Shown piece by piece: positions 7,688 through 48,772 of a DNA stretch of 64,000 bases. Position 1 is the stretch's first letter. The number at the start of each line of letters is the position of its first letter. The stretch lies in sequence record NZ_CP110908.1; one strand, 5' to 3'. The notes under the pieces were generated by a model. That model saw only the letters and a list, made by a program, of their open reading frames with translations. It had not been told where the DNA came from and did no database searches. The stretch comes from a plasmid. The position numbers and the translations under genes were made by a program.

Positions 7688-7699
7688 TCTGCCACCGAA

Positions 7700-7719: not shown

Positions 7720-7735
7720 AGGTTGTATCAACCCG

Positions 7736-18532: not shown

Positions 18533-18725
18533 CTTCAGCTCCTTCCTTTTGACCTGCGGTCATTCTACGTTATTTGTTCGTTATACGTGTATGACCCGTA
18601 TTCTGGATTCACATAAATTAACAGCATATGTTAATTTATGTGACGCGATTCACTAACCAGCTTTCGTTAACTGTATATATTAACAATATAGAACAAAATA
18701 ACACTTAAATTAACAAGGAAAGAAG

Positions 18726-23876: not shown

Positions 23877-23945
23877 ACCTGATGTCTGCTCAAAACTTGT
23901 TTTTGAGCAGACGACGGGTTGGGCAAGCCCGCCGGGCGCGTCAGG
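23877..23945 (+). other. Recombination-site-like module B (candidate rfsF-type site) downstream of resD
   Basis: Perfect IR TCTGCTCAAAACTTGTTTTTGAGCAGA followed by GGTTGGGCAAGCCCGCCGGGCGCGTCAG. Confidence 0.5.
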
Positions 23946-25583: not shown

Positions 25584-26299
25584 AATGCACCTCTTTTTTA
25601 CATACTTCAGGTATGCCATAAAGTATACATTCTGCTGAAGCAAAAATCTGCTCCGCTCTGTGAATACTGTAAACCGGCTTACAGTGACTGAGTTAACTGT
25701 ACACTGCTGTTATAGACATACCTCGCATATGCATTTTGATGCGCATCTTATTGATGCCGGATTTCGCCTCTTAAAACGCATACTGTTAGCCAGCCACTAG
25801 TAACCTAATCATATTTTACACATAGCAACTTTCACCAGATGCAATTACAACTCAACTTATAAAAACACCCCTGAATTACCGGATGGCAGTTTTCTGGTGA
25901 TCCGATTTCTGGAGTATTTAAGACTTTCCGGAAGTGTACCACGGGCAGGGAATAAGCAAAGCGGTCTTTTCCGGCCCTGTGCGACAGGTCAGGAAAAGAG
26001 AGAGTAACACAACATATAGTAGATAATCCGTCTTACGGAGTAGTGCATTTTGTGTTTCCGGGCCGAAGATCGCCGGAGTGGTACAGGAAGATCCGGGACT
26101 GCCTTTTTTCGGATCTGAGCGGGAAAAGTGAGAAACCAACATAGGTGTAACATATCCATATGCCGGGCATCTGCATAGGCAAAGCATACGCATATACCTA
26201 CCATCTGCATATGTAACACCTATACAAGCCGGGCTTGCAGGCATATACTTCACCTATGCGGGAATACTCCCTGGCACACTCAGCATATGAGGAAAAACC

Positions 26300-26530
26300 A
26301 TGCGCACAGTTTCGATATTTAAAAACGGCAATAACCGCGCCATCCGTCTGCCCCGGGACCTGGATTTTGATGGCGTCAGCGAGCTGGAGATCGTCCGGGA
26401 AGGGGACAGCATCATTCTGCGTCCCGTCCGGCCGACCTGGGGCTCGTTCGCGCAGCTGGACAGGGCCGATCCGGACTTTATGGCGGAGCGGGAAACTGTC
26501 TTCAGTGACCAGGGCCGGGGTGAGCAGTGA
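26300..26530 (+). CDS. vapB: VapB antitoxin (AbrB/SpoVT fold)
   Basis: 76 aa, MRTVSIFKNGNNRAIRLPRDL. Confidence 0.8.
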   Translation: MRTVSIFKNGNNRAIRLPRDLDFDGVSELEIVREGDSIILRPVRPTWGSFAQLDRADPDFMAERETVFSDQGRGEQ

Positions 26531-26937
26531 ACAGGACATATATGCTCGACACCCGTCTCTGCGCGTACATCATGCGCGAGCAGCCGGAAGCGGTACTGAC
26601 ACGCCTGGAGCAGGCGGTGCTGCGCGGCGACCGTATCGTGGTCTCTGCCGTCACCTGGGCCGAACTGTCACAGGCGGCACGGGCGTCCGGTCCCGCCACG
26701 CAGGCACTGGCCGACGCGTTCTGCGCCAGTCTCGATGCCGTGCTGGCCTGGGATCGCGCCGCGGTGGATGCCACCACCGTCATTAAGGCAGCACTGGCCG
26801 CAGACGGCACGCCGATCGGCCCGAATGACACGGCGATCGCTGGGCATGCCATCGCCGCCGGCGCCGTGCTGGTGACGAACAATGTGAGAGAGTTTGCGCG
26901 GGTCCCGGGCCTGGTGCTGGAAGACTGGGTTAAATAG
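26527..26937 (+). CDS. vapC: VapC PIN-domain toxin
   Basis: GTG overlaps the vapB stop (GTGA); ATG at 26542 is an alternative start; PIN residues (LDTRL..., TNNVREF). Confidence 0.8.
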   Translation: MNRTYMLDTRLCAYIMREQPEAVLTRLEQAVLRGDRIVVSAVTWAELSQAARASGPATQALADAFCASLDAVLAWDRAAVDATTVIKAALAADGTPIGPNDTAIAGHAIAAGAVLVTNNVREFARVPGLVLEDWVK

Positions 26938-27154
26938 TACGGCAGAAACACCGTATTAATGGAGGTCCGCTTTGTGCCAAAAGCAGACTTTAAGTTGTCC
27001 AAGAACAGCTCTCATATCTTGGCCTCTTTATGTCGACCACCACTTCAGTGCCTGCAGGATTTAAGGGGACAACGAGCCTGCATGTGGACACAGGTATATC
27101 GGTGAGTTAATGTCTTTAAGGGGTATCATTTGACTGTATCTTGAGGGACTTAGA

Positions 27155-28811
27155 GTGCGGGTTAAATCGATTAAGCTTACCAATTTCAAGAAATTCAAAG
27201 ATGAACATTTTGAATTCAACGATGACGTAAATATCTTTGTAGGTGATAACAACGCCGGTAAAAGTACTATTCTGGAAGCCCTGGAAATCGTACTGAATTA
27301 CAGCTATCGAGGCCGCCCCTTCAACAGCGAGTTTACGCCAGACATTTTTAATAAGGATGCAGTGCAGCTTTTTTTGGCTTCTGATAAATCGGCCTCTATT
27401 GCCTGTCTTGGCAATAGAGGCATTCATTGAGGGGGTGCCTGAATACCGGGGTACAAATAATTTCCTTAAAGCCGATGCTCAAGGGATCACGGTGCTGGTG
27501 CGCTTTGATGACACGCTCAAGGACGTTTACGCCGACCACTTACTGACAAACCCACACATTACGAGTATCCCGATCGAATTCTACAAGCTGGAATGGCTGG
27601 ATTTCGGATGGAATCCTGTTAAAGCCGTAGCGAAGAAATTCAGGGCGTTATACATCGACCCAACTCGTATCCACCCCACTCTGGGTAAGAATCAGTACAT
27701 CTCTACCATACTTAATACCGCTTTAAAGAAAGAGGAACTGGTTAAGCTGACCCTCAATTATCGTGAGAATCAGCAGGTTTTTAACAACTCAGGTGAGGTC
27801 AGGACAGTCAACACCGGTCTGGATACGGACCACTTGATCACAGAAAAAAAGCTGTCCATTGCCGCAAGCACTTTACCAGCGGGATCTATTCATACCAGCC
27901 TTCAACTTGAAGTAGATGATGTCCCTTTCCAGTTCATTGGCAAGGGTGAGCAGAGTAATGTGCAGATCAAGCTCGCGATTCAGAACAAGTCGAAGGATAT
28001 CGATTTGGTGATGATGGAGGAGCCCGAAAATCACCTTTCTCACACTAACCTCAATAAGCTGGTTCACTACATTGAAAATCAGCGGGGCGACAAACAACTC
28101 TTCCTTACCACTCACAGCTCGTATGTGCTCAACAAGCTGAGCATTGATAAAATCTGCCTGGTTCAGTCGGGATACAAACGTCTGCATAAGCTTGCCCCTG
28201 CAGTGGTCAAAACCTTAAAGCGCTTACCGGGCTATGACACATTGCGCGTGGCACTGTCGCACAAAGTCATCCTTGTCGAGGGACCGTCAGACGAGTTAGT
28301 ACTCAAGAAGATTTACCACCGCAAGCACAACCGCCTGCCCGAGCAGGATGGTATTGATATCATCGTCGTGCGCGGAGTCGGGTTTGATACGTTCATCTCT
28401 GTAGGTATGGAAATTGGTACCCGGATAAACGTCCTCAGAGATAACGATGGCGACTATGAAGAAAACGTCGTGAAAGCGCGTGCCGATTATGCGGCCTATC
28501 CCAATATCAAACTTATCTCCTCTGCCAAAAATGAGGAGTTTTCGCTTGAACTCGCGATGATATATGCCAATGCAACCGACTTGGTTACGCTGGACGCTTT
28601 CGCCAAAGTGGTGTTATCGACACAAACGTTTAACCTCTACGATAAAGTAGTCGACTTAGATAAGCGACGCGACTTTCTGATCGACTGGTTTCGAAGCGTC
28701 CAGGGAAACGGTAAGGGCGCTCGCAAGGTCGATTCAGCTATCAAGCTGTTTGATGGCACTCTGAATTTCAGGTATCCACCTTTCCTCGATGAGGTGTTCG
28801 ACTTTGCCTAA
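27155..28811 (+). pseudogene. gajA: OLD-family ATP-dependent endonuclease (GajA-like), frameshifted
   Basis: GTG start with GAGGGA SD; Walker A GDNNAGKST; ...EEPENHLS...LTTHSSYVL ATPase motifs; TOPRIM VILVEGPSDELV; reading frame changes within 27357-27430, where a T7 run sits at 27368-27374. Confidence 0.7.
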
Positions 28812-28964
28812 TGAATTCTGGATTGCCGGTGCAGGATCAGGAAAAACCCAAAAAGTCATTGAGGATGCCATTGAAGTCATAAAGGCGGGCGGACGCGTAT
28901 TGGTCGTCACCTACACCATGAACAACCAGGCAGAGCTCCGTTCTCGCTTTGTGGAATTGTACGG
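28789..28964 (+). pseudogene. gajB: UvrD-like helicase (GajB-like), N-terminal ~59 codons only, truncated by an IS903-like element
   Basis: FWIAGAGSGKTQKVIEDAI...RVLVVTYT Walker A region; the IS end begins at 28965. Confidence 0.65.
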
Positions 28965-30019
28965 GGCTTTGTTGAATAAATCGAACTTTTGCTGAGTTGA
29001 AGGATCAGATCACGCATCCTCCCGACAACACAGACCATTCCGTGGCAAAGCAAAAGTTCATAATCACCAACTGGTCCACCTACAACAAAGCTCTCATCAA
29101 CCGTGGCTCCCTCACTTTCTGGCTGGATGATGAGGCGATTCAGGCCTGGTATGAGTCGGCAACGCCTTCATCACGAGGAAGGCCCCAGCGCTATTCTGAT
29201 CTCGCCATCACCACCGTTCTGGTGATTAAACGCGTATTCCGGCTGACCCAGCGGGCTGCGCAGGGTTTTATTGATCCCATTTTTGCCCTGATGAACGTTC
29301 CGTTGCGCTGCCCGGATTACACCAGTGTCAGTAAGCGGGCAAAGTCGGTTAATGTCAGTTTCAAAACGTCCACCCGGGGTGAAATCGCACACCTGGTGAT
29401 TGATTCCACCGGGCTGAAGGTCTTTGGTGAAGGCGAATGGAAAGTCAGAAAGCACGGCAAAGAGCGCCGTCGTATCTGGCGAAAGTTGCATCTTGCTGTT
29501 GACAGCAACACACATGAAGTTGTCTGTGCAGACCTGTCGCTGAATAACGTCACGGACTCAGAAGCCTTCCCGGGCCTTATCCGGCAGACTCACAGAAAAA
29601 TCAGGGCAGCCGCGGCAGACGGGGCTTACGATACCCGGCTCTGTCACGATGAACTGCGCCGCAAAAAATCAGCGCGCTGATTCCTCCCCGAAAAGGAGCA
29701 GGTTACTGGCCCGGTGAGTACGCAGACCGCAACCGTGCCGTTGCTAATCAGCGGCTGAGCGGAAGCAATGCACGGTGGAAATGGACAACGGAATATAACC
29801 GTCGCTCGATAGCGGAAACGGCAATGTACAGAATGAAGCAGTTGTTGGGAGATTCACTGACGCTGCGTGACTACGATGGTCAGGTAGCGGAAGCTATGGC
29901 CATGGTGCGTGCGTTGAACAGGATGACAAAGGCTGGGATGCCAGAAAGCGTGCGTATTGCCTGAAAATCCAGCCAGCTACAGGGTCGTTCGCACGAAATC
30001 TTATTTATTCAACAAAGCC
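28965..30019 (+). mobile_element. IS903-like element (IS5 family), ~1055 bp, transposase frameshifted
   Basis: Ends GGCTTTGTTGAATAAATCG and its inverted copy; tnp ORF 28997-29680 continues in another frame to ~29964 (A6 run near 29662); no flanking 9-bp TSD. Confidence 0.8.
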
Positions 30020-30247
30020 CATCGGCACCCATCTGGTTTACCTGGTGGCGATCAAAAATATCATCCTGAGCCAAGAGGGACACGGCCTGATTTACTTTAA
30101 GCGCAGATTTCATCCGGTGTTAATTGAACAAGAAATAACCGTTTAATACCCCTTCGCCAGTCGAATTTCGGCTGGCGCTTATTTGTTTTCCACTCTCTGA
30201 AATTGAAACAATCACTATCAGAAACTAATGTCCAATATACGCTTTTG

Positions 30248-30256
30248 CCCCCCCCC
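30248..30256. repeat. Homopolymeric C9 tract upstream of kps region 1
   Basis: TTTTGCCCCCCCCCACCAGAG. Confidence 0.9.
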
Positions 30257-30466
30257 ACCAGAGTTAATAGTCTTTCGGACTTTTCCCCTTTTTCAGAGCT
30301 GATTTCTGAAATTTGAAATGACACAATCTGCAAATTAATGTAATCTTCGCCACACAAAAACACTTTCATGAATAATAAAAAACGATTTAGTTGTTTACTG
30401 AATAGTTTTTTATGGCAGCATCCTAAAGCAAATTGAACACTTTCTAACCGGAATCGTCATTTTCCG

Positions 30467-30478
30467 TGCGGTAGCCTA
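30467..30478 (+). promoter_or_regulatory. ops-like element (TGCGGTAGCCTA; ops consensus GGCGGTAGCGTG) upstream of kps region 1
   Basis: 9 of 12 match including the GCGGTAG core, about 150 bp upstream of the lipoprotein/kpsD operon. Confidence 0.4.
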
Positions 30479-30630
30479 CCTTTTTTTTGCCCTTTATTGC
30501 TTCATTTCCTCAGCTATGCGCCTCTGCTCCCTGGCCTTCGGGTCAACTTTTTGGGCAATATAAACAGTCGGGTACCTACGAATTTTTATATTCACACGCC
30601 AGGTTCCGAATACATGGAAAATATTTACAA

Positions 30631-31005
30631 ATGAAGAACGCAACTCGCCTTCTGGTGATTTCGCTCGCCCTCATCCTGAGTGGCTGTGCATATTCCCCGA
30701 AGCAGGTTGAAGCCTCAAGACCGCTTGTAAATCAAGCCGCTTCGACCGATCTCCACGCTATGGCAGCTAACCTGCAACAACCTCTGAACACCCTGCCGCA
30801 GGGCGCTACTCTTAGCGCCAATGGCACCACCTTTACCCTGGGTCAGCGCTATGTCTCTGCCCTGGGGCTGGAATGCATTGAACTGCTGCGTAACCGTAAC
30901 TACAACCAGTCGCAGTGCGGCGTGACCTGCAAGAACGGTGATACCTGGTATCTGATACCGCAACTGGAACAGGCATCTGCCAGCAACTTGCTTGCCGTTC
31001 AATAA
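30631..31005 (+). CDS. Lipoprotein (124 aa), first gene of kps region 1
   Basis: MKNATRLLVISLALILSGC lipobox signal peptide; ORF 30487-31005 trimmed to this ATG. Confidence 0.6.
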   Translation: MKNATRLLVISLALILSGCAYSPKQVEASRPLVNQAASTDLHAMAANLQQPLNTLPQGATLSANGTTFTLGQRYVSALGLECIELLRNRNYNQSQCGVTCKNGDTWYLIPQLEQASASNLLAVQ

Positions 31006-31007
31006 TT

Positions 31008-32786
31008 TTGAAGAGAAATGTTGTGAAGATAACGAAATTTCGGCAATTGAGTGCCATTCTGCTGCTGGCCTGCGCCTCTTGCGCTGCCATTGCCGCCCCT
31101 TCTAAGGAAGATGCTCAGGCCTTTGGAATGAACACTCCGGCAGATACCGGCGACGGCCGACTGCAACTCGGCGGTGATCAGGCGATGAGCGGTCAGGCGA
31201 ACACCTCCTCTACCACCGGGACTTTTACGCAGCAAAACCGCCAGGGCATGTTACTGCCGGGCGAGTCCGACGTGCGTAAATTACTCCCGCAGTCCGAGTC
31301 CGGTCTGCCCCCTCCTTACGGTGCCAACCTGTTTGCCGGTGGCTATGAAACCGAGCGCAGCGACGGTCTGACTGATAATTACCTGATCGCTCCCGGCGAT
31401 AAGCTGAATATCTGGATCTGGGGCGCAGTCAATTTCTCCAACGTCGTCACCGTTGATAATCAGGGTAATATTTTCATCCCTGATGTCGGGCCGATTAATG
31501 TAAAAAACGTAGCAGCAAGTAAAGTCAATAACTTAGTCACCAGCCACATCAGTGAAGTATTTACCAATAACGTTAATGTTTACGTAAATTTACTTACGGC
31601 AACGCCGGTCAGCGTATTTGTGACCGGCCCGGTGATCCGTCCGGGGCAATATGCCGGCCAGTCTTCCGACAGCGTGCTCTATTTCCTGAAACGCGCAGGC
31701 GGTATCGACTCCGATCGCGGCAGCTACCGTCATATTAAGGTGTTGCGTCAGAACCGGGTCATTCAACAGATCGACCTGTACGAGTTTATGCAGCAGGGCA
31801 AAATGCCGAAGCTGGCGCTGAAGGATCAGGACGTGATCCTGGTTGAACCGCAGGGGCCGATGATCAACGTGGCCGGTAAAGTGCGTAACCCGTTCCGCTT
31901 CGAGTTAAAGAACAGCAGCGCGCTGGGCTCCGAGCTTATCGATTACGCTCTGCCGCTCGCGAAGGTGAGCCACGTGGGCGTGATTGGCGATCGCGCCAGC
32001 GGCCCGTTCTCGGTCTATATGCCATATAAAGATTTTGATCGCATTCAGCTGAGCGACGGCGACAAAGTGCTGTTCAACGACGATATGCATGCCCAGGTTT
32101 ACGACGTTCAGGTGATGGGCAGCTACCGTGGGCCATCTTACTTCACCGTGCGTAAAGAGACCCGACTGCACGATCTGCTTAACCATATTCCGATTGACCC
32201 GAACATGGCAGATTACGGCTCGATCTACATCATGCGTAAGAGCGTGGCCGCGCGGCAGAAAGAGATGCTGGAAGACTCCCTGAACCGCCTGGAGCGCAGC
32301 GTGTTTACCGCGCCAGCAAATTCCGACGGTGAGGCTTCCATTCGTACCAAAGAAGCCGAGCTGGTAATGCGCTTCGTGGAAAAAGCCCGCAAGATCCAGC
32401 CGCTGGGGAAAGTGGTGGTGTCGGATAAGGGCGTGATTGCCAACATCCTGCTGGAACAGGGCGACCAGATTGTGATCCCGAACAAGACCGACCTGATTCA
32501 GGTGGGTGGCGAAGTGATGATGCCGCAGGCGGTGGTCTACAACAAAAGCGCCACCCTGGAAGACTATGTGGCCTGGGCGGGCGGCTTTACCGATCGTGCA
32601 AACGATAAGCGTATTGCCGTGGTACATGCCAACGGGCTGATGGAGTTTAAAGACGGCGGTGATGTGATGGCAGGCGATCAGATTCTGGTCATGCCGAAAG
32701 TGGACAGCAAAATGATGCAGTCCATCAAAGATATTACCCAGGTCATCTATCAGGTTGCCGTGGCGGCCAACGTGGTCCTGAATTAA
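31008..32786 (+). CDS. kpsD: Capsule polysaccharide export protein KpsD
   Basis: 592 aa, collinear similarity to E. coli KpsD (DKLNIWIWGA...NQGNIFIPDVGPINV...RAGGID). Confidence 0.85.
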   Translation: MKRNVVKITKFRQLSAILLLACASCAAIAAPSKEDAQAFGMNTPADTGDGRLQLGGDQAMSGQANTSSTTGTFTQQNRQGMLLPGESDVRKLLPQSESGLPPPYGANLFAGGYETERSDGLTDNYLIAPGDKLNIWIWGAVNFSNVVTVDNQGNIFIPDVGPINVKNVAASKVNNLVTSHISEVFTNNVNVYVNLLTATPVSVFVTGPVIRPGQYAGQSSDSVLYFLKRAGGIDSDRGSYRHIKVLRQNRVIQQIDLYEFMQQGKMPKLALKDQDVILVEPQGPMINVAGKVRNPFRFELKNSSALGSELIDYALPLAKVSHVGVIGDRASGPFSVYMPYKDFDRIQLSDGDKVLFNDDMHAQVYDVQVMGSYRGPSYFTVRKETRLHDLLNHIPIDPNMADYGSIYIMRKSVAARQKEMLEDSLNRLERSVFTAPANSDGEASIRTKEAELVMRFVEKARKIQPLGKVVVSDKGVIANILLEQGDQIVIPNKTDLIQVGGEVMMPQAVVYNKSATLEDYVAWAGGFTDRANDKRIAVVHANGLMEFKDGGDVMAGDQILVMPKVDSKMMQSIKDITQVIYQVAVAANVVLN

Positions 32787-32840
32787 CCCTTATAGCGGGC
32801 TCGCCTCATCGCGGGCCCGTTCTGTTATATCGGCCTTCTC

Positions 32841-33641
32841 ATGCTTAAACCTGTTCTCAATCAAACGCCCCGCAGCTCGTTCCAGGTGCTGCGCGATGTA
32901 ACGTTTGGCCTGCTTATACGTGAACTGAAAACACGATTTGGGAGTTACCGACTGGGGTATGCCTGGGCGCTGTTGGATCCGTTGTTGATGATTGGTCTGT
33001 TTAGTGCGATTTTCGGGATGCGTGGACACAGTGGTTTTGGTGGCGCGCCTGCACCGCTCTTTATTACTGCGGGCTATCTGCCATTTATCTTTTTTAAGAA
33101 TGTGGTAAGCAAGCTGCAATCGGCAGTCAATGCTAACAAAGGGTTGTTTTGCTATCGGCAAGTGACACCTTTCTCCACTTTTATCGCCCGGTTTATCCTT
33201 GAAACCATTGTTGGCATGATCGTCGGCGGCATTCTTATCCTGGGATTATTATGGTTTGGGTTTGATGCCGTACCAGCTGACCCGCTGAAAATCATTCTTA
33301 TCTATATGCTGTTTATGGTTTTTTCGTTCTCATTGGGCGTCGTCTTTTGCATTACGGGCAACTTAGTTAACGAGGCCGAAAAATTCCTCGGTTTGTTAAT
33401 GATGCCGTTAATGTTTATCTCCTGCGTTATGTATCCCCTGGCAAGTATCCCGTCACTGTATCAACACTGGTTTTTATGGAATCCCCTGGTACACGCCCTT
33501 GAGCTAATACGCTCTGGCTGGATTGCCGGCTACGCCAGCCCGAACGCCAGTTGGACTTATCTGTTTGGGGTGACACTGGTACTGCTAACGTTTGCTATGA
33601 GTAGCTATCGCCTGAGCCATCGCCGACTGATTGCCAGCTAA
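32841..33641 (+). CDS. kpsM: Capsule ABC transporter permease KpsM (ABC-2)
   Basis: 266 aa, multi-TM. Confidence 0.85.
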   Translation: MLKPVLNQTPRSSFQVLRDVTFGLLIRELKTRFGSYRLGYAWALLDPLLMIGLFSAIFGMRGHSGFGGAPAPLFITAGYLPFIFFKNVVSKLQSAVNANKGLFCYRQVTPFSTFIARFILETIVGMIVGGILILGLLWFGFDAVPADPLKIILIYMLFMVFSFSLGVVFCITGNLVNEAEKFLGLLMMPLMFISCVMYPLASIPSLYQHWFLWNPLVHALELIRSGWIAGYASPNASWTYLFGVTLVLLTFAMSSYRLSHRRLIAS

Positions 33642-33651
33642 GGGGGATAGC

Positions 33652-34302
33652 ATGATTGTTCTGGAAAACGTCTCTAAATATTACCCCACCAAATTTGGCC
33701 GCAATTATGTTTTGCGTGATGTAAACATTACTCTCCCTCGCGATCGCAACATCGGTATTTTGGGTGTTAACGGGGCAGGAAAATCTACCCTTCTTCGCCT
33801 TCTAGGCGGCATGGATATGCCTAATAAAGGCAAGGTCACCCGCCACTGCCGTGTCTCGTGGCCCCTTGCCTTGAATGGAGGTTTCCAAGGAAGCATGACC
33901 GGACGAGAAAACACCCGCTTTGTTTGCCGTATTCATGGAGTAAGGGATACGCAAGCTATTGAGGAGTGGGTAAAAGAGTTCTCGGAAATCGGCCAGCACT
34001 ATGAGTTGCCGATTAAAGGCTACTCTAGCGGGATGAGATCGAAATTTTCTTTTGCTGTAAGTATGGCCTTTGATTTTGATATCTATCTTACTGACGAAAT
34101 CATGTCTGTTGGCGATGCCCGATTTAAGCAGAAATGTATAGATACTTTTAACCAAAAACGCGAGACAGCCAGCCTGATCATGGTTTCACATGATATGAAG
34201 AACCTGCGCCAACAATGCGATATGGGGATTTTGCTGCGCAACAGTGCTCTTGAGGTGTTCGATAATATCGACGACGCCATCCGCATTTATCAAAGTTTGT
34301 AA
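33652..34302 (+). CDS. kpsT: Capsule ABC transporter ATPase KpsT
   Basis: MIVLENVSKYY...GVNGAGKSTLLRLLGG...YSSGMRSKFSF; GGGGGA SD. Confidence 0.85.
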   Translation: MIVLENVSKYYPTKFGRNYVLRDVNITLPRDRNIGILGVNGAGKSTLLRLLGGMDMPNKGKVTRHCRVSWPLALNGGFQGSMTGRENTRFVCRIHGVRDTQAIEEWVKEFSEIGQHYELPIKGYSSGMRSKFSFAVSMAFDFDIYLTDEIMSVGDARFKQKCIDTFNQKRETASLIMVSHDMKNLRQQCDMGILLRNSALEVFDNIDDAIRIYQSL

Positions 34303-34317
34303 TCAACCGATAAAATC

Positions 34318-35520
34318 ATGACCCAACCAATTCGTTCTAACAAAGCATCAGGAATGATGCGTAAGCTGCGCAAGTTAAAAACTAAACCAAAACATTTTAT
34401 TGTCGACTCCAGTGGATTCCGTCTTGCTCAGCAATCATGGAAACAGAGCCTTAAACTCGGCAGTTTCATGTGGGTAGTAGCCTTTTTTTCCATTGCCGTA
34501 GTCTATTTTGGTTTCATCGCTTCGGATCGTTATGTAAGCCGGGCGCAGCTAGTCATTAAACAAGCTGACCAAATAAAAATGTTGCCTGACGCACTGTCAA
34601 TGCTGGGCATTGGTGGAAGTAATCACGAAGATGTATTGCTGGTTCAAGACTATCTGAACTCTCCAGATATGCTTGCAAAACTGGATAAAGAGTTGGGTCT
34701 GAAAGCACATTATCAAAGTCATGATATAGATTATTTCTCTCGGTTATCAGGTGATGTAAGCCAGGAGGATTTCCTCAAATATTATCGGGATCATTTGTCA
34801 TTGCGTCTCGATGACCTCTCAGGTGTGCTTACAGTGGAACTGCAAGCATTTGATCCTGCTTATGGTCAACGCGTGGTGAACCTGATGCTTAAAGAGTCAG
34901 AGGGTTTCATCAATAAACTCGGACATCAGGTAGCACTGGAACAACTGGCCTTCGTCGAAAAAGAGGTCGATCGTGCTTATCAGCGTGTACAGGATGAAAA
35001 AGCGAAGGTTCTTGATTTTCAGAACCAACATAATCTGATTAGCCCCGAATCGACCAGTACTGCCCGTCTGGGTGTGGTCAGCCAGATCGAAAGCGAACTG
35101 GCAAGCCAGCAGGCGCAGCTGAAACAGCTGCAGAGTTATATGAAGGACACGGCGCCTGCTGTCATTTCTATTAAGGCCAGAGTGGAGGCTTTAACTGAGC
35201 AACTGGCCCAGGAAAAAGCCAGACTTACTGGCACGGATCAAAATGCAATGAATGAAGTGACCGCTCGCTATATGGATATTCAGACTCAGGCTACTCTGGC
35301 CGTCGATCTTTATAAAAGCGGTCTTATCAGCCTGGAACAAGCTCGGGTTGAGGCGTACCGCAAGCTTAAACACTTGCTTGTTGTGAGCCAGCCAACGATT
35401 GCACAAGATGCAGAGTACCCACGACGCCTCTATAACCTTGCAACAATCGGTGTACTTCTTTGTCTACTGTATGGATTAATCGTGATGGGACTCGCGACAC
35501 TTCGTGAACATCAGGATTAA
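34318..35520 (+). CDS. kpsE: Capsule export inner-membrane protein KpsE
   Basis: 400 aa, similar to KpsE (YLNSPDMLAKLDKELGL..., C-terminal TM). Confidence 0.85.
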   Translation: MTQPIRSNKASGMMRKLRKLKTKPKHFIVDSSGFRLAQQSWKQSLKLGSFMWVVAFFSIAVVYFGFIASDRYVSRAQLVIKQADQIKMLPDALSMLGIGGSNHEDVLLVQDYLNSPDMLAKLDKELGLKAHYQSHDIDYFSRLSGDVSQEDFLKYYRDHLSLRLDDLSGVLTVELQAFDPAYGQRVVNLMLKESEGFINKLGHQVALEQLAFVEKEVDRAYQRVQDEKAKVLDFQNQHNLISPESTSTARLGVVSQIESELASQQAQLKQLQSYMKDTAPAVISIKARVEALTEQLAQEKARLTGTDQNAMNEVTARYMDIQTQATLAVDLYKSGLISLEQARVEAYRKLKHLLVVSQPTIAQDAEYPRRLYNLATIGVLLCLLYGLIVMGLATLREHQD

Positions 35521-35579
35521 AAAAATATCTAAAATAATTGTTTCTTTATTTTTTGCATAACAATTGTGTTACAAAGTTA

Positions 35580-36346
35580 GGTAATGACTCCAACTTATTG
35601 ATAGTGTTTTATGTTCAGATAATGCCCGATGACTTTGTCATGCAGCTCCACCGATTTTGAGAACGACAGCGACTTCCGTCCCAGCCGTGCCAGGTGCTGC
35701 CTCAGATTCAGGTTATGCCGCTCAATTCGCTGCGTATATCGCTTGCTGATTACGTGCAGCTTTCCCTTCAGGCGGGATTCATACAGCGGCCAGCCATCCG
35801 TCATCCATATCACCACGTCAAAGGGTGACAGCAGGCTCATAAGACGCCCCAGCGTCGCCATAGTGCGTTCACCGAATACGTGCGCAACAACCGTCTTCCG
35901 GAGACTGTCATACGCGTAAAACAGCCAGCGCTGGCGCGATTTAGCCCCGACATAGCCCCACTGTTCGTCCATTTCCGCGCAGACGATGACGTCACTGCCC
36001 GGCTGTATGCGCGAGGTTACCGACTGCGGCCTGAGTTTTTTAAGTGACGTAAAATCGTGTTGAGGCCAACGCCCATAATGCGGGCAGTTGCCCGGCATCC
36101 AACGCATTCATGGCCATATCAATGATTTTCTGGTGCGTACCGGGTTGAGAAGCGGTGTAAGTGAACTGCAGTTGCCATGTTTTACGGCAGTGAGAGCAGA
36201 GATAGCGCTGATGTCCGGCGGTGCTTTTGCCGTTACGCACCACCCCGTCAGTAGCTGAACAGGAGGGACAGCTGATAGAAACAGAAGCCACTGGAGCACC
36301 TCAAAAACACCATCATACACTAAATCAGTAAGTTGGCAGCATCACC
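35580..36346 (-). mobile_element. IS1 with 8-9-bp TSD (CAAAGTTAG)
   Basis: Ends GGTAATGACTCCAACTTATTGATAGTG and ATCAGTAAGTTGGCAGCATCACC; InsA/InsB ORFs present. Confidence 0.9.
35595..36291 (-). CDS. insAB: IS1 transposase InsA/InsB (programmed -1 frameshift gives InsAB')
   Basis: [32 protein letters not shown] (InsA) and InsB-like ORF 35595-36107. Confidence 0.85.
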
Positions 36347-36456
36347 CAAAGTTAGCTTGGTATATTTTCTAATACCAGCAAAAAGACTTCACATTACAAT
36401 TCGTGGGAGAGTCTTTTTCCCACAATCTCTTCCATCATCCTTAAAATTTTACAGCT

Positions 36457-37563
36457 ATGCGAAAACTAAAAAAATTTTTTAGGCATCCTGGAATTTTTGT
36501 TCGGGATCATTTGAATAAGAAATATCCAGTCATTCGTAATGAGATCGCATGCTCTGCGGATGAAGAACATATTTTAATTCGTCATGACCTCGAAATGGAG
36601 GCTCAGATCAAAATTGACTTCCCTATTGATGTTGTTTTTACTTGGGTAGATGATTCGGATCCAAAATGGCAAAAACGTTATAATTACTTTAAGCATTCAA
36701 CAAATAAAGATAGCTTAGGTGAATATGCAACAGATCCGGCCAGATTTAGTAATCATGATGAGTTAAGGTATTCTCTTCAAAGCGTCTTAAAATTTTTACC
36801 TTGGGTTCGGCGAATCTATATTGTTACTGATAATCAATGTCCGGAATGGCTCAAAGCAAGTGAAAAAATTAAGATAATTGATCACAATGAAATAATTCAA
36901 GAGCAATATTTACCAACATTTAATTCTCATGTAATTGAAGCCCATTTACATAAAATTCCTGATTTAGCTGAACACTTTATCTATTTTAACGACGATGTAT
37001 TCGTTGCAAGACCACTTCCCCCAGGCCATTTTTTTAGGAGCAATGGTATTGCATCTTTGTTTATGTCGAAGAAAAGCCTTGCTGTTATGCAAGAAAAAGG
37101 CAAAAACACTCCTACACTTTCAGCCTCACTAAGATCAGCATCTATTTTAAATAATAAATTTAGTTTAATCATCGATAATCCTTTAGTACATACATATGTA
37201 CCACTTCGAAGAACTATGTTTGAAGAAGCATGGAAGGTTTACGAATCTGAGCTTTCAACGTTTCTATCTAATAAATTCAGGACGAATGATGACATCAATA
37301 TGGCAACGTTTTTTGTACCTTGGTTATGTTATATACGCGGTACGGCTGTACCATCCAGGGATATTTGCTATTACTTCAATGTCAGATCCCCGGCGGCGGC
37401 AACATATTTTAAAGCCCTAGAAGTCGCTAAAAAGAAAGGAACTCTTCCACATTCTTTTTGTGCCAATGATTTTAATACAAAAATAACAGCCAACTCTGAT
37501 TATAAAGGGTTGCTAGAATCCGCACTTAAGCAATATTTCGAACACGGTAATAAAAATGATTAA
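36457..37563 (+). CDS. Stealth-family capsule hexose-1-phosphotransferase (kps region 2)
   Basis: 368 aa with Stealth conserved regions ([34 protein letters not shown]); ~30 percent GC. Confidence 0.75.
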
Positions 37564-40500
37564 AAGAAAAGTTAAGAAACTTGTTAAAAACCCAAAATTA
37601 TTCTTTTCTGATATGGTTATTAAGCATAGTGATAAAGTAAGCTATCTTAAGCCAAAGAAAATGGAAGGCAATTATCAATTTACAGTTATATCTGCGATAT
37701 ATAATGTAGATCGGTATTTGAACGAGTTTATTGAAAGCATAATTAAACAACGCCTCGATTTCAAAAAACACATTCAACTAATACTTGTTGATGACGGATC
37801 TATTGATAATTCTGCAGAGATTATTCAACGCTGGCAAAAAAAATACCCCCTTAATATATCTTATATTTACAAGGAAAATGGGGGGCAAGCATCTGCAAGA
37901 AACATTGGCCTTAAACATGTTAAAACTGAATGGGTTACATTTATTGATCCAGATGATTTTGTCAGTAATGATTACTTCCTTGAAATAGATAGATTTATTT
38001 TTAAAAACAGTAATTTAAGTATGGTTGCATGTAATTTAATTTTTTATTACGAAGATAAAAAACAATTTAGTAACACACATCCATTAAGATTTAGATTTGA
38101 AAACGATGCTGTTTATCCAGTTAACGATTTAAAAAAATCTTTTCAACTATCCGCTAGTTCAGCTTTTTTCTTATCAAAACTAATAAAAGACAACAACGTA
38201 ATTTTTGATGAGAGAATTAAACCAAATTTTGAAGATGCCCATTTTATCGCCTCATACCTTTCGCACCCAATTAAATCATTTGTTGGATTTGCTAAAAAAC
38301 CAATTTATTACTATAGAAAAAGAAGTGATGGTTCTTCGACTCTTGATACATCATGGGAGAAGCCTGGCCGTTATAGTGATGTACTCGAATATGGTTACTT
38401 AAATATCCTCGAAAAATATAAATCTAAATTTAATACAGTCCCTTTACATATACAGCGTAGTGTTTTATATGATATGCTTTGGCATTTTAAACGAATTGTT
38501 AACAATCCTGAAAAGGTAAATTTCCTAACAGCCGAACAAAAAAATAATTACCTAATTTTGATTGATAAAGTTTTTAAATTTATTGACAAAAAGACCATTC
38601 TCGATTTTGAACTAGCAGGTTCTTGGTTTTACCATAAAGTTGGTATTATGGCCTGTTTTAAAAATTTGTCTATCGATAATCAAATAGCATATATAGAAGA
38701 TATTGATCGCGCAAAGAACTTAATCCAAATTCGTTACTTTACGCATGACATTACACTTGAACAATTCTTTGTTAACAGCGATGAAATATATCCATCATTC
38801 GCGAAAACGATTAAACATGATTTTTTAGAAAGAACTTTTGTGCTTGAGAGAAGAGTTTGGGTTAATTTTAAAAATATTAATGATATTTTAACCTTAAAAA
38901 TAAGTGGCAAATTTGCCAGATTGTCAATTGCGGGTAAACAATATAAAACAGGTGTTCCTTTTACTATTATTAAAGATTTCTTTGATAGCCAGATTCCTTC
39001 CTATGTTCAAGATGAAAAATATCAGAATGCATGGCTACTAATGGATCGCGATACACAGGCGGATGATAACGCCGAGCATCTTTATCGATATATATCCAGA
39101 CAACATCCAGACCAACCTATATTTTTTGTTTTAAGTAAAAATTCACACGACTGGATACGATTAGAAAAAGAAGGATTTAATTTAATTGAGTTTGATAGTC
39201 AGCAACACAAAGCAGCGGTTATGAGTTGCAGCAAAATAATTAGCTCTCATGCTGATAAATATGTGACAAATTTACTAGGACCAAAAATGCTTTCAGGAAG
39301 ACATTTTGTTTTCCTTCAACACGGTATAACCAAAGATGACCTTTCAAATTGGCTTAATCAGAAAGAAGCTATAGATTGTTTTGTAACGTCTACAGAAAGT
39401 GAATTCAAATCCATTTGTGACGATTATAGTAGATATAAGTATTCTCAAAAAGAAGTAAAATTAACAGGCTTTCCAAGACATGATCATTTGATTAACTGTA
39501 AAGGTAATACAGAGAAATTAATTGTAATTATGCCTACATGGCGAAGAAGTATCGTTGGCAATGTAATCGGTGATGGAAATAGCAGAATGTTAAATCCTGA
39601 CTTTATGAAAACAACATTTGCTAGTCATTGGTATGATTTATTGCATTCTAAAGAGCTTAAAATACTTTCTGAAAAATCAGGCTATAAGATTGCATTTTAT
39701 CCTCACGCTAATATCCAACCTTATCTAAAGCAATTTGAGACCCCCGAATATATTGATGTGATTAATCATAGCTCAGGGTCAATTCAGGATATTTTCAGCA
39801 GAGCAGCTTTAATGATAACTGATTATTCATCGGTTGCATTTGAAATGGCTATTCAAGACAAACAGAGTATTTACTATCAATTTGATGAACATGAATTATT
39901 CTCTGGCGGGCATGTGTATTCGAAGGGTTATTTTGACTATCGAACGAATGGCTTTGGGCCAGTAGTAACTACACTAAACTCATTAATAGATGAATTAAAG
40001 AAAATAATACATAATAATTGCGTACCTACAGCTGTGATCAAAGAAAGAATCGATCATACTTTTCCTAATAGAGACGGTCGCTCTTGCCAAAAAACATTTG
40101 AAGCAATTACAGAATTGGATAAACCCCTTCCCAATAACTTTATAGATATTGATATTGTAGAATCATATGCAGAACATGCCACAAGACAGCAACACTGGAC
40201 CTTATCTCATGCAAGATGGAAATATCTACTTAGTGTATCAGCAAAAAACAATAATATTATAAAGTTAAAAATTGCGGAAAGTTTGCGTGAACAAGGTAAA
40301 TTTACAGATGCTGATAAAATTTTAACAAATATAAATACTACTAAAAAAGACAATAATGCTTTAGCTGTAGAAAAAGCATTATTAGCTATGCGTAGACAGC
40401 AATGGGAACTTGCAATCTACTATTTCAAATCTAGTGAAATTCGCAACGAAAAAGAAGCTATTAGTTACCTTCGCTGTTTAGCTGAATTAGAAATGGATAA

Positions 40501-41740
40501 TGAGTTCAACATAGTTGATACATCCATATACAATACTTTTAAAAGAAAATATGAAGATTATAAAAACTATTGGAAATTAATCTGCGAAGGAAAAAAAGAG
40601 AAAGCGGCTTTAATTTTAGAAAAAAGGATAGTAACATGTACGCATGATGAGCTTGTAACTATGCAACCGCAACTGTTACTTGCAAATACATATTGCCAGT
40701 TAAAACGTTTAACTGATGCAAATCAGCAATTATCCAATTTCGAAAAACATACTAACAACTCTCCATTCTGTCGAGAAATAATAGCACAGTTAGCTTATCT
40801 TAGAAAAAACTGGAATAAAGTTATAGTTCAAGTCAGAACCGCTTATCCAACAATAAATGATACTCCTGAGCCAGTCGTTGTATTAACAATCAAAGCATTA
40901 CAAAATCAGAAGAAAGAATTATCTGCTGCGTTAAATAAAGTAACGAAGCCAGAGACAATAATAAGCAAGTCAATATATCTTCGCGATAAAGGTTTGCTTA
41001 ACCAAGCGCGGTCGCTATTAACTGATAACCGTAATATATTGATTGAGAATAACAACATTAATAATTATAATATCGAGATAGCTAAAATAGAAATTTTACT
41101 TCACAACTGGCAGAAAGCTCTTTCACATTTAGAGCAGTTAACTAAGCTTGATTATGAAACAGGCATGATGAAATTAAAGTGTCTCGCCGAATTACGTAGA
41201 CCTAAAGCAATTCGCCGCGCCTTAAGTGATAGTGAATGGTTCCAAAGCTTGCCACCTTATCAGTATAATTTTGCGGAGTCGCTATTTGAATATTCCAAGG
41301 GTAACATCCAAAGGGCTACAACATTATTAAGCAAAGCATTAATTGAATACCGCCCCGATCTGTTGATCATGCATAAACCTTATTTATGGCTTGCTCGTTG
41401 TTTACGTGAATTGGGGCAACTCGATGCTGCGCATAATGCTCTTCTGGAGCATGAAAAATTATTAAATAATGATCCTCAATGCAGAGAACAAATTGCTCGC
41501 TTAGCAATTAACAATAATAAGTTGAAAAAAGCCATATTTCAACTTGAAAAGGCATATCCAGATTACTCAAGTTTGCCTTTAGATTTAGCAACTATTTTAA
41601 TATTTGCATTAAGAAGTGAAAATAATCACACTCAAGCTGAAAAAGTTATTAAGTCTCTGCCGATTGATTTTGCTTCGAAAATCCCTATTGATACGGAATA
41701 TTCTTTTGAAAATATGTTAAAAGAACCGGCACATTCCTAA
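37556..41740 (+). CDS. Giant multidomain capsule biosynthesis protein: GT2 glycosyltransferase, then CDP-glycerol glycerophosphotransferase (TagB/TagF-like), then TPR repeats
   Basis: 1394 aa. N-terminal [14 protein letters not shown]...[12 protein letters not shown] (GT2). Central ~520-800 [13 protein letters not shown] and FPRHDHL (TagF-like). C-terminal ~550 aa of repeated TPR-like helices. Confidence 0.7.
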
Positions 41741-41802
41741 ATTATTAAAGTGATGCTAAAAACTTCAACTATTTCAACTCATTACTTAACGGAAATATTT
41801 TA

Positions 41803-43542
41803 ATGTCATCTCTTGACTCTCTTGGCATTGAGTACAATTTAAAACAATCCTCATTAAAAGATGATTACTTATCCTTTTACGAGCGCGAAATATCATACAG
41901 ACTTCCTAATAGTTTTACCCTGCTAATCATAACGAATGAAAAAATAGAAGATGTTGCTTCGGTTTATTCAAAGAAATATCCACTATCAAAAATCATTGTC
42001 GCGTCATATGGATATGAAAGCTATACAACTTCGTTTTTAGATAATGTGGTTTTCCACGCTTTCATAAATCTAGATGCGCTTATCAATCAGATTTCTTTAA
42101 TTTATTTTGATGCGGTTATTGAACATAGCTCTAATCGAAAATCACATAAACTAAAACTGTTTAAGAAACTTTTCTTCAGATTACCAAAAGGAGGGGTTTA
42201 TTTCATCCAAGAATTACATGCTAAGTTTATTTCTGGATTAATCGATTGCGACGGCCCTGACATTCTTGACCTTATAAACGAAGTTTCCCAATTAAAAATA
42301 TCAAATAATGACAGAAGAAAAAACGCTGACCCTTATGCCGTAGCACTTGCTGAATGTTGCGAAAGTATATTTATAAAAAGTAAGTTAGGTGTCTTGGTCA
42401 AAGGTAAAGCTTCTTTCAAAAGTTTAAGAAGCAACGAAGCTAAAAACATGATCAACTCTGGTTCATTGAAAGGGAGTATAATTGTATCAAATGATAATGA
42501 ATTTGAATTTGTACATTCAATAACATCTGTTATAACTCCAACTGGTGAGCCATGGCGAAATCCAGCCAAATTTAAAATACCAGAATCGTTTTTAGCTAAA
42601 TACCAAAGTGTACATTGTGATGTTGGACAGATCGCATATATGGATGGATATTTGTTGCCCGATTCCTTTAGAATGCAGCATCACAAAAAACTTACAAATC
42701 GTAATATAATCTCTTTAGTAGCTGATATTTGTTTATTAAAAGATGAAAAACCAGATCCGATTCATCTTGCAGGTGAATACTTTTATCTTGATTCGGAATA
42801 TCCGGGTCATTTCGGGCATTTTACTTCTGAGGTAGTTTCAAGACTATGGGCATGGGAAGAGATTAAAACAAGATCTCCTAATGCAAAAGTATTAATTGGG
42901 CTTGAAAAAGGAAAATCATTGCCAAGTTTTATTGAAACTATATTATCATGTTATCACATTAGTAGAAATGAAATACAAACCTTCGATAGTAGTATCACTG
43001 TTGATGTTCTTTATGCTGCCACTCCTTACTATGCTATCGGCAATCACATAAATCCAAAAATAAAAGATGTTTGGGAGAGAATTGGTGAGAGTACTAATGA
43101 TGGTATTTCCGGGATTATTGGCAATCGATTATTTATTTCTAGACCTGAAGGCGGGGAAAGAAAATGTCTAAATGCTGAAAAACTAGAACGTATATTCTTT
43201 GAAAGAGGTTTTGAGTTTTACAACCCTGAAAAATATTCCTGGAAAGATCAGGTTAAAACATTTTCCAGTGCTGACGTTATTGCTGGCTATGCGGGAAGCG
43301 GCACTTTCAACACCATGTTTGCTAAAGGTTCTAAAAAAATATTTATCATTGGTTCAGACTCATATACTGCAACAAACGAGCATTATATCTGCGCCATTAA
43401 AGGTTATGATTTAAATTATTACCTTGGTGATTCATTAGTAAAACATGGCAATGTATTTTCACTAAAAGCATTTAAATCTGATTATAACTTTAATTATGAA
43501 CGAGATGAAGAATCACTCATTGATGCATTAAGTAAAATATAA
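41803..43542 (+). CDS. DUF563/GT61-like capsular glycosyltransferase (kps region 2)
   Basis: 579 aa; EYFYLDSEYPGHFGHFTSEVVSRLWAW matches the DUF563 core. Confidence 0.6.
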   Translation: MSSLDSLGIEYNLKQSSLKDDYLSFYEREISYRLPNSFTLLIITNEKIEDVASVYSKKYPLSKIIVASYGYESYTTSFLDNVVFHAFINLDALINQISLIYFDAVIEHSSNRKSHKLKLFKKLFFRLPKGGVYFIQELHAKFISGLIDCDGPDILDLINEVSQLKISNNDRRKNADPYAVALAECCESIFIKSKLGVLVKGKASFKSLRSNEAKNMINSGSLKGSIIVSNDNEFEFVHSITSVITPTGEPWRNPAKFKIPESFLAKYQSVHCDVGQIAYMDGYLLPDSFRMQHHKKLTNRNIISLVADICLLKDEKPDPIHLAGEYFYLDSEYPGHFGHFTSEVVSRLWAWEEIKTRSPNAKVLIGLEKGKSLPSFIETILSCYHISRNEIQTFDSSITVDVLYAATPYYAIGNHINPKIKDVWERIGESTNDGISGIIGNRLFISRPEGGERKCLNAEKLERIFFERGFEFYNPEKYSWKDQVKTFSSADVIAGYAGSGTFNTMFAKGSKKIFIIGSDSYTATNEHYICAIKGYDLNYYLGDSLVKHGNVFSLKAFKSDYNFNYERDEESLIDALSKI

Positions 43543-43650
43543 CCTATATTGGGTTGTTTTTTAAGTGCTATAATCTTCTCAAAGTCTGATGTAGCCCCCT
43601 GAAACACCGGACAGTAGCTGTATCTCCAGATAAGAGACAGGCTTGAATAT

Positions 43651-44046
43651 ATGTCTAACACTAACGCCAATTTTGAGATGACCGGGATCCTGTTAGGGCA
43701 AGAAGTCCGTAAACGTAAAACTCCTCAGGAGAAGATCGCCATTATCCAGCAGACGATGGAGCCGGGTATGAATGTCTCCCATGTCGCCCGCCTGCATGGT
43801 ATCCAGCCCAGCCTGCTGTTTAAGTGGAAGAAGCAATATCAGGAAGGCAGCCTCACCGCCGTTGCGGCTGGAGAGGAAGTCGTTCCTGCTTCTGAGCTTA
43901 CTGCTGCTCTGAAGCAGGTCCGGGAGCTTCAGCGCCTTCTGGGCAAGAAGACGATGGAAGTTGAGATCCTGAAAGAAGCCGTGGAGTACGGTCAGTCGCG
44001 AAAATGGATAGCGCACGCGCCCTTGTTGCCAAAGGACGGGGAATAG
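43651..44046 (+). CDS. IS3-family transposase OrfA
   Basis: Similar to IS2 InsC ([25 protein letters not shown]). Confidence 0.85.
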
Positions 44047-44885
44047 CCATGGTCTGCCGGACCATGGGCGTGTCGCGTGCGCAACTGTCACTGCGGATTA
44101 ACCGTTCTGCCGACTGGCAGGACAGGCGCTGTAACCGGCGTAATGAAGAAGCAGACGCAGAAATACTGTCGGCTATCCTCAACATTATCAGCGATATGCC
44201 GAGTTATGGTTATCGACGCGTGTGGGGCATCCTGCGCAAGCAACGTCGCACAGAGGGACAGCTACCTGTGAATGCCAAACGGCTTTACAGGATAATGCGT
44301 GAGCATAACCTGTTGTTGTTGCATCACAAACCAGAGCGACCGAAGCGTGAACATAAGGGCAAGATAGCGGTGGCAGAAAGCGATATGCGCTGGTGTTCAG
44401 ATGGCTTCGAGTTCGGCTGCGACAACGGCGAAAAACTGCGGGTAACGTTCGCGCTGGACTGCTGCGACCGTGAGGCCATAGACTGGGCAGCAAGCACGGG
44501 AGGCTATGACAGTTCGACCGTGCAGGATGTGATGCTGAGGTCGGTGGAAAAGCGCTTCGGCGACAGGTTGCCCGACACAGCGGTGCAGTGGCTGACGGAT
44601 AACGGTTCAGCGTATACCGCGTATGAAACGCGGAGGTTCGCGAGAGAGCTGAATCTGGAGCCCTGCACAACAGCGGTGAGCAGCCCGCAGAGTAATGGCA
44701 TGGCCGAACGGTTCGTGAAAACGATGAAAGAAGACTATATCGCGTTCATGCCAAAACCGGATGTGAGAACAGCACTGCGAAACCTTGCAGTAGCGTTCAC
44801 GCATTACAATGAAAACCACCCGCACAGCGCGCTGGGATATCACTCCCCGAGGGAATACCGGCGGCAGCGGACATCGTTAACTTAA
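44004..44885 (+). CDS. IS3-family transposase OrfB
   Basis: 293 aa, similar to IS2 InsD. Confidence 0.85.
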
Positions 44886-44949
44886 GATACAAAAGCTGTT
44901 CGGAGATGGAGGGTCAAGATCAAATCTTCTCAAAGTCACTCATTGAAAA

Positions 44950-45272
44950 AAACAATTAGAGCATAGTTCGACGTGGCGGTGGATATCCGTAAAAGCTCCC
45001 CGACCTTTGGTCAGTGGGTGGGCGTGCATCTGTCTGGCGAGAACAAGCGTCAGCTGTGGATCCCGGAAGGTTTCGCCCACGGCTTTATGACCCTGAGCGA
45101 CACCGCAGAGTTCCTGTACAAAACCACCAACTACTATGCGCCGGAGAGCGACCGTGGCATCCGCTGGAACGATGAGACCATTGCGATTACATGGCCGGAA
45201 ATCGACAGCGAGATCCTCACCTCCGCCAAAGACAGCGTTGCCAAATCCTTCCCTGACGCAGAGTACTTCTGA
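44950..45272 (+). pseudogene. rmlC: dTDP-4-dehydrorhamnose 3,5-epimerase (RmlC) 3' fragment
   Basis: ...WIPEGFAHGFMTLSDTAEFLYKTTNYYAPESDRGIRWNDETI... C-terminal RmlC sequence with no N-terminus; followed by hairpin CACGCCCCGCAGTGACGCGGGGCGTTTT. Confidence 0.75.
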
Positions 45273-45307
45273 GTCACACGCCCCGCAGTGACGCGGGGCG
45301 TTTTCTG

Positions 45308-47326: not shown

Positions 47327-47415
47327 CACACTATTTATCCCGATTTATTAAAGAAAAACGGTCATCAAGCCGTTAACTCACCTGTCTCATCAACGGAACC
47401 GATCTGGGAAAAAAA

Positions 47416-48660: not shown

Positions 48661-48772
48661 TTCATCTCCACGCCGGGGAAATTGCCCCGGCGGATCCGAT
48701 CTCTACCGCGCTTTTATCCCGCCGCTGTAAAAATCCCTAATGTTTATCCCAATTCTGGCCGTTATAACCTAA

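Follow-up and report, generated by a model that had tools for sequence, protein, structure and literature searches.

Relic of a Gabija defence cassette on Citrobacter freundii plasmid pCF1807-2, with IS903-linked loss of gajB and a putative template-switch frameshift in gajA

Here we describe what is left of a Gabija anti-phage cassette, gajA followed by gajB, in a 64,000-nt stretch of plasmid DNA (the window) that is 100% identical to the Citrobacter freundii CF1807 plasmid pCF1807-2 (NZ_CP110892.1). In our judgement the locus is very probably a non-functional relic beside vapBC, in which gajB is cut short by an IS903-group insertion sequence (IS), gajA would have been frameshifted by a template switch, and a run of seven T residues (T7) in gajA had no part in the loss of function. 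Gabija defence requires both genes (PMC12407980, PMC10568477), and here gajA carries a -2 frameshift and gajB retains 54 of 384 codons; therefore, the locus cannot protect against phage.

Results

The gajAB cassette

The cassette comprises the following features, given by their positions in the window; ORF denotes an open reading frame and aa amino acids.

26969-28964, plus strand: gajAB cassette DNA common to intact copies elsewhere (blastn)
27155-28811, plus strand: gajA pseudogene, OLD-family ABC ATPase plus TOPRIM nuclease, 552 codons when intact (PADLOC, Pfam)
27155-27430 and 27357-28811, plus strand: the two gajA ORFs, 91 aa and 484 aa, overlapping by 74 bp
27242-27268, plus strand: GajA Walker A motif GDNNAGKST, kept only in the 91-aa N-terminal fragment (translation)
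28257-28448, plus strand: GajA TOPRIM core with the acidic motifs VEGPSDE ... RDND (RDNDGD) (Pfam, translation)
28789/28804-28995, plus strand: short helicase ORF
28804-28965, plus strand: gajB remnant, codons 1-54 of 384, UvrD-like helicase (PADLOC, Pfam, tblastn)
28825-28848, plus strand: GajB Walker A motif AGAGSGKT

A first-pass annotation, made from the sequence alone, had read an OLD-family ATPase/TOPRIM gene followed by a UvrD-like helicase as the GajA/GajB arrangement and had proposed comparing the ORFs with GajA and GajB profiles. Both match, PADLOC and Pfam agree, and the helicase lies directly downstream. PADLOC GajA and GajB were the top match for every ORF: the GajA profile PDLC00102 matched the 91-aa N-terminal ORF at E 5.7e-31 and the 484-aa ORF at E 1.1e-167 (profile positions 85-531 of 532), and the GajB profile PDLC00148 matched the gajB remnant at E 4.3e-17. 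The ABC-type ATPase domain is present in the N-terminal gajA ORF (Pfam AAA_15, 67 bits), OLD-like_TOPRIM (PF20469) scores 47.7 bits against a cut-off of 23.2 over residues 301-364 of the second gajA ORF, and UvrD-helicase (PF00580) scores 30.6 bits, above its cut-off, on the gajB remnant. Full-length GajB homologues match PDLC00148 at E 1e-122 and Pfam UvrD-helicase above the cut-off, with UvrD_C just short of its own.

Intact forms of the cassette were found elsewhere. A Pantoea agglomerans plasmid carries a gajA of 552 codons and a gajB of 384 codons that overlap by 8 nt; the same 552-aa and 384-aa pair is present in Rahnella and Serratia plasmids and in E. coli chromosomes, and intact pairs at 99% protein identity lie in two Logan contigs (L012 and L013). 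At the DNA level a Pantoea plasmid (L001) is 96.5% identical to window 26969-28964 (blastn), and a Proteus columbae locus (L016) is 98.1% identical to window 26974-28964. Intact 552-aa GajA homologues with 99% identity were also recovered (P0001-P0003), and tblastn covers a 552-aa GajA in the window at 96-97% identity in two pieces, residues 1-81 at 27155-27397 and residues 83-552 at 27399-28808. Directly after the cassette, L012 has YuaX and a CAP12-PCTIR_TIR gene, a setting that suggests a defence island.

Of gajB only the beginning is left. The start of about 59 codons with AGAGSGKT seen in the first-pass annotation is present, counting 59 codons from an ATG at 28789 or 54 from the TTG start used in homologues (28804), and this gajB start overlaps the end of gajA by 8 nt. 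The remnant matches residues 1-54 of Pantoea GajB at 98% (tblastn), and its frame continues into the IS as far as a stop at 28993-28995. The remaining 993 bp at the 3' end of gajB were found nowhere else on pCF1807-2, their matches being confined to Pantoea, Serratia and Rahnella plasmids. With gajA frameshifted as well, the earlier description of the locus as the wreck of an anti-phage system is upheld.

A frameshift in gajA that completes an inverted repeat

The features that bear on the state of gajA are as follows.

27369-27375, plus strand: T7 homopolymer of wild-type length, inside the ORF overlap; T7 also in ten relatives
27392-27421, plus strand: perfect 12-bp inverted repeat made by the lesion (repeat search)
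27395-27399, plus strand: frameshift lesion, codons 81-82 (pairwise differences from E. coli plasmid pLAU-OXA3 and metagenome contig L017; six-sequence alignment; tblastn)
27893, plus strand: Q247H, window-specific G>T, at a position invariant in 23 homologues
28552, plus strand: P467L, window-specific C>T, at a position invariant in 23 homologues

The first-pass annotation had gajA change frame in an ORF overlap containing the T7 run. The overlap, the frameshift and the run are all there, but the frame does not change at T7: comparison with intact homologues, which the same annotation had recommended for placing the frameshift, mapped the lesion to 27395-27399, 20 nt downstream of the run. 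Here an ancestral TCGGCC-ACGCAC-TTGCC has become TCGGCC-TCTA-TTGCC, so that 6 nt are replaced by 4 nt with a net loss of 2 bp; intact gajA reads GCCACGCACTTGCC at 27392-27405, and tblastn puts the frame switch between 27397 and 27399. From the GTG start, 81 native residues are followed by SIACLGNRGIH and a stop at 27428-27430. As translated, GajA is split into a 91-aa peptide with the Walker A motif and a remainder that lacks the P-loop and would be either untranslated or N-terminally headless. Compared with the IncR copy on pLAU-OXA3, the lesion and one single-nucleotide polymorphism are the sole differences in gajA over ~970 bp. Q247H and P467L occur in none of the close relatives, and the pair of substitutions fits relaxed constraint on gajA.

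The T7 run is present in 10 of 10 independent close copies, namely those in Pantoea (L001), E. coli IncR plasmids (L003, L006 and L014), the Logan contigs L012 and L013, Proteus columbae (L016) and metagenome contigs (L017-L019), and six of these carry a complete 552-codon gajA. Two uses of the run had been put forward in the first-pass annotation, a slipped-strand ON/OFF switch and a homopolymer miscall as the cause of the frameshift; with T7 wild-type and in frame in ten copies, and the real lesion 20 nt further on, neither could be sustained. The idea that T7 is a contingency tract, at which slipped-strand mispairing toggles gajA, draws on the position of the run inside the ORF overlap and on the finding that, with the -2 lesion in place, a change from T7 to T6 restores a stop-free frame of 551 codons in which nine residues are replaced by eight. 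However, all copies with an intact or unshifted gajA are in frame with T7, the run is invariant in ten records, remoter homologues are free of a homopolymer at this site (CAGCAATTCTTGG), and the OFF state is due to another mutation. Moreover, the T6 revertant would exchange LASDKSATH for WLLINRPL and so lose the invariant S76, D77 and S79, with GajB still missing. We therefore give such a switch almost no credence.

The lesion instead has the form of a templated change. It creates a perfect inverted repeat with the arms GCCTCTATTGCC (27392-27403) and GGCAATAGAGGC (27410-27421) and a 6-nt loop, and the derived TCTA is the exact complement of TAGA, 15 nt downstream in the opposite arm. The ancestral form, GCC-ACGCAC-TTGCC / GGCAA-TAGA-GGC, has only 5+3 paired bases round an internal mismatch, and a repeat search at the same site in L003 and L001 returned no perfect repeat. 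As a single-strand DNA hairpin the derived sequence is predicted at -13.5 kcal/mol (z -5.9), compared with -4.1 (z 0.18) for the ancestral one. In the whole 64-kb window there are three perfect inverted repeats of >=12 bp with a loop of 3-10 nt. Quasipalindrome template switching is recognised by a templated multi-base change that turns an imperfect inverted repeat into a perfect one (PMC7202029), and in gajA the repeat has been made more perfect by new bases complementary to the other arm. From this we infer that the lesion arose by a quasipalindrome template switch during replication. Mutation at quasipalindromes is known to be more frequent in exoI/exoVII mutants. ACGCAC is kept in all ten copies except that of Proteus columbae (L016), which has ATGCAC, and a search for the derived TCTA allele in genome and metagenome collections returned ancestral alleles only.

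The other two perfect repeats of the window lie at 18609-18643 (15-bp arms, 5-nt loop) and 23884-23912 (12-bp arms, 5-nt loop). A Providencia protein of 472 aa that starts with MHLPV at the lesion site (P0004) was considered as a second hit at the quasipalindrome, which would have been evidence of a hotspot. It was dismissed: the ORF begins where its 1.6-kb contig begins (L015, Logan SRR31599288) and has the same ACG to ATG variant as L016. The break of this contig at the hairpin site may be a coincidence.

An IS903-group element between gajB and hpaC

To the right of gajB lie the following features.

28965-30019, plus strand: IS903-group (IS5 family) element, 1055 bp (inverted repeats, 99.5% identity)
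28997-29964, plus strand: IS903 transposase gene, frameshifted (differences from the canonical copy; tblastn)
30020-30146, plus strand: hpaC 3' remnant, the last 127 bp or ~42 codons, at the left edge of the capsule-locus module (alignment, translation)

The element ends in 18-bp terminal inverted repeats, at 28965-28982 (exact) and 30002-30019 (one mismatch) when compared with GGCTTTGTTGAATAAATC. Copies of 1056 bp that bear the annotation IS5 family transposase, and that occur in >5000 plasmids, share 99.5% identity with it, and four substitutions set it apart from the common copy of the IS903 group; NZ_CP110892.1 carries one IS903 copy. Its transposase, in which Pfam finds DDE_Tnp_1_5 and DDE_Tnp_1, has itself decayed. 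A run of seven A residues has been shortened to six (A6 at 29657-29662; change at 29663), the frame is lost after about residue 222 of 322, and the ORF stops at 29680, after residue 227 of 322. With tblastn, residues 1-233 and 223-322 are found in two frames, and the single intact transposase of the IS903 group is lacking here.

The IS903 reference is 1057 bp long and normally makes 9-bp target duplications (PMC12670165). None was found at this IS: the flanks, ATTGTACGG on the left from gajB and CATCGGCAC on the right from hpaC, are unlike, which confirms the earlier statement that gajB was cut by an IS903-like element with no target duplication. On the right the IS abuts the gene for the reductase subunit of 4-hydroxyphenylacetate 3-monooxygenase, hpaC, which is intact in C. 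freundii p1C73 (L007 6615-7127) and E. coli pCE1537-B (L008) upstream of the same capsule locus; the window from 30016 aligns with L007 from 6997. Thus aligned, the IS bridges two truncated genes of different modules, the gajB remnant (gajB') and hpaC.

A missing target duplication usually results from an adjacent deletion or from recombination between two IS copies, adjacent deletions being common for IS903 (PMC11708052), an element known for these and for cointegrates (PMC11708052, PMC12670165). Loss of gajB by an IS-mediated deletion, as the first-pass annotation had supposed, is plausible, but with the IS joined to the hpaC module it is inseparable here from recombination involving two IS903 copies. 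The plasmids p1C73 and pCE1537-B also have an IS903 copy that lacks a target duplication; theirs stands 1.5 kb further left and faces the other way, so the module boundary has probably been rearranged more than once. A simple adjacent deletion from a p1C73-like ancestor was ruled out by the opposite orientation of the IS there. The plasmid p1C73 carries blaKPC-2.

Relatives that share the junction

Metagenome contig L017 (ULVV01056296.1) aligns with window 26642-28127 and 28122-30011 at 99.3-99.6% identity and has a gajB'::IS903 junction identical to that of the window. At the quasipalindrome, at Q247 and at P467 it has the ancestral sequence, together with an intact transposase. What splits gajA in this contig is a complete Tn3-family transposon of 3.66 kb, inserted at window 28123-28127 with a 5-bp duplication (TATGT); the transposon encodes tnpR and a 965-aa tnpA and has inverted repeats (reverse-complement coordinates 1492-5154). 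The left part of this structure is also found in the E. coli IncR plasmids pLAU-OXA3 and MINF_8D plasmid 5 and in contigs L018 and L019; in pLAU-OXA3 it includes about the first 0.8 kb of the transposon, and an IS26 copy lies just beyond. In IncR AB66 plasmid 5, gajA ends at nucleotide 324, beside ISEc52. Further along L017, at ~7046-8400 of the reverse complement, a 341-aa IS110-family-like ORF starts at the exact point where IS903 breaks off, 8 bp short of the end of its right inverted repeat.

Since L017 shares the junction and has an unshifted gajA, gajB was truncated first and gajA inactivated later. By this comparison, gajA has been inactivated independently at least twice after the loss of gajB. 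The repetition, which concerns two lineages, may be due to neutral decay or to selection against a nuclease left without its partner. If a GajA nuclease without GajB were costly, knock-outs would have swept each lineage; in line with this, two lineages that share the junction have different gajA disruptions, by a quasipalindrome here and by a Tn3-family element in L017 and the IncR plasmids, and a copy that combines the gajB'::IS903 junction with an intact gajA was never found among the relatives searched. However, the lineages are only two, neutral disruption is expected in pseudogenes, and the transposase of the adjoining IS has decayed too, so we hold selected loss to be unlikely. The fuller proposal, in which orphan GajA became a liability once IS903 had removed GajB and was knocked out independently in sister lineages, we regard as a speculative one that is probably wrong. 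Were it true, GajB would restrain GajA besides acting as its partner, and the decay of defence systems on plasmids would follow a selected order.

Layout of the plasmid region

The window is the reverse complement of NZ_CP110892.1 120164-184163. The plasmid, pCF1807-2, is a 211-kb IncC/IncFIC mosaic resistance plasmid of clinical Citrobacter, and a literature search on the strain found CF1807 cited for its sil genes. The order of genes is ccdAB, vapB, vapC, the two gajA ORFs, the short helicase ORF, the IS, the hpaC fragment and the capsule locus, with the two vap genes placed as follows.

26300-26530: vapB
26527-26937: vapC

The left boundary of the cassette is 32 nt past the vapC stop. Four successive locus tags here, RS02470-RS02485, are without a coding sequence (CDS) in the PLSDB gene table; this is as pseudogenes would give, because that table leaves out pseudogenes. 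Within vapB, 26298-26469 has 26 substitutions relative to the E. coli IncR copies in its first 170 bp and near-identity begins at 26470, which points to a recombination breakpoint inside the gene. On the other side, window 30020-48700 holds a kps-like (group 2-type) capsule locus with genes for an export protein, an ABC transporter, a Stealth CR1 protein, a 1394-aa CDP-glycerol glycerophosphotransferase and a GT61 glycosyltransferase.

Discussion

Based on these observations, we propose the following history. First, an IS903-group element came to abut codon 54 of gajB and the other 330 codons were lost, through an adjacent deletion made by IS903 or through recombination of one IS903 copy with another; the same IS now connects gajB' with hpaC. 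Next, and in this lineage only, a template switch in the imperfect repeat of gajA would have copied one arm from the other; ACGCAC would thereby have become TCTA, leaving the repeat perfect and the reading frame shifted by -2 at codon 81/82. Decay then went on, with Q247H and P467L in GajA and the -1 frameshift in the IS transposase.

Several points weigh against this history. The gajA frameshift is known from a single public assembly, so that an assembly error is formally conceivable, and the A7 to A6 indel in the neighbouring transposase could be a sequencing error. If the frameshift were an artefact, gajA would be intact in the real plasmid, with gajB truncated regardless; confinement of the allele to one assembly would agree with this, as would the 1-bp homopolymer loss in the IS, which is of the type made by long-read assemblies. 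The gajA lesion, however, lies outside a homopolymer, and its new bases exactly complement the opposite arm, unlike random miscalls. One template switch accounts for four aligned differences, and a real mutation is therefore favoured over a sequencing artefact. Two more substitutions at invariant GajA residues fit real relaxed selection, and few other locus tags in the window are absent from the CDS list of the record, so frameshifts do not abound in this assembly. Taken together, we consider an artefact improbable.

A further group of points concerns membership of Gabija. Searches of PDB with this GajA, as a single sequence and as a profile (phmmer, hmmsearch), did not return the Bacillus cereus GajA structures at E<=1; only the P-loop region was matched, to Rad50, RecF, PtuA and the retron Ec83 ATPase. 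The AlphaFold2 model of the intact homologue P0003 (mean predicted local distance difference test score, pLDDT, 42; predicted template modelling score, pTM, 0.35), built on a shallow alignment of 23 sequences at 80-99% identity, is too poor for a check of the fold. The locus might then be another OLD or ABC-ATPase system beside a helicase fragment, such as PARIS AriA, Septu PtuA, a retron-associated OLD or a stand-alone Class 1 OLD, and indeed the N-terminal 91 aa also match AriA, PtuA, AbiLi and Old profiles. Those matches, however, span only the P-loop of ~50 residues, whereas coverage over the full length is obtained solely with GajA profiles, and every intact relative has a downstream gene, overlapping by 8 nt, that matches GajB profiles end to end. 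It is this pairing of an OLD nuclease with a UvrD-like helicase that defines Class 2 OLD/GajA (PMC10568477), and B. cereus GajB is matched weakly by GajB of this subtype (8sm3_B and 8j4t_G, E 0.002). Membership of Gabija is thus argued from the PADLOC profiles together with the domain architecture and the context of the genes, its link to the experimentally studied system is indirect, and we regard assignment to a different system as highly improbable. Finally, an intact Gabija may lie elsewhere in the CF1807 cell, our comparison covering the plasmid only.

What we describe is the ordinary gene decay of an already known defence system, and knowledge of Gabija itself is unchanged by it. Nevertheless, the case has some practical bearing. 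Finders of defence systems that score presence could count this plasmid as Gabija-positive though it is unable to defend. It is also a warning that a homopolymer in an ORF overlap need not be the site of a frameshift, as intact copies moved the lesion by 20 nt and changed the mechanism. In addition, the relatives provide a dated decay series for one plasmid-borne cassette, in which the helicase went first and the nuclease was then hit independently in two lineages, and the lesion would be a clear-cut case, from nature, of a frameshift templated by a quasipalindrome.

Each part of this history has its counterpart in known systems. As in the E. coli thyA hotspot and the lacZ quasipalindrome reporters (Ripley model), one arm would have served as template for a multi-base change in the other, with a frameshift as the result (PMC7202029); in contrast to those systems, this is a single natural event in a plasmid defence gene that recurs in 0 of 10 related copies. 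The junction resembles known IS903 adjacent deletions and inter-IS recombination, which likewise leave a single IS without a 9-bp duplication between truncated unrelated genes. Lastly, the cassette has the same architecture as the Gabija systems of B. cereus VD045 and Pseudomonas aeruginosa PA14, an ABC ATPase with Walker A and an OLD TOPRIM followed by a superfamily 1 helicase with Walker A. In B. cereus, GajA and GajB form a 4:4 assembly. The cassette differs from these characterised systems in that both genes are dead here and that GajB of this subtype has 384 aa, compared with 494 aa in B. cereus.

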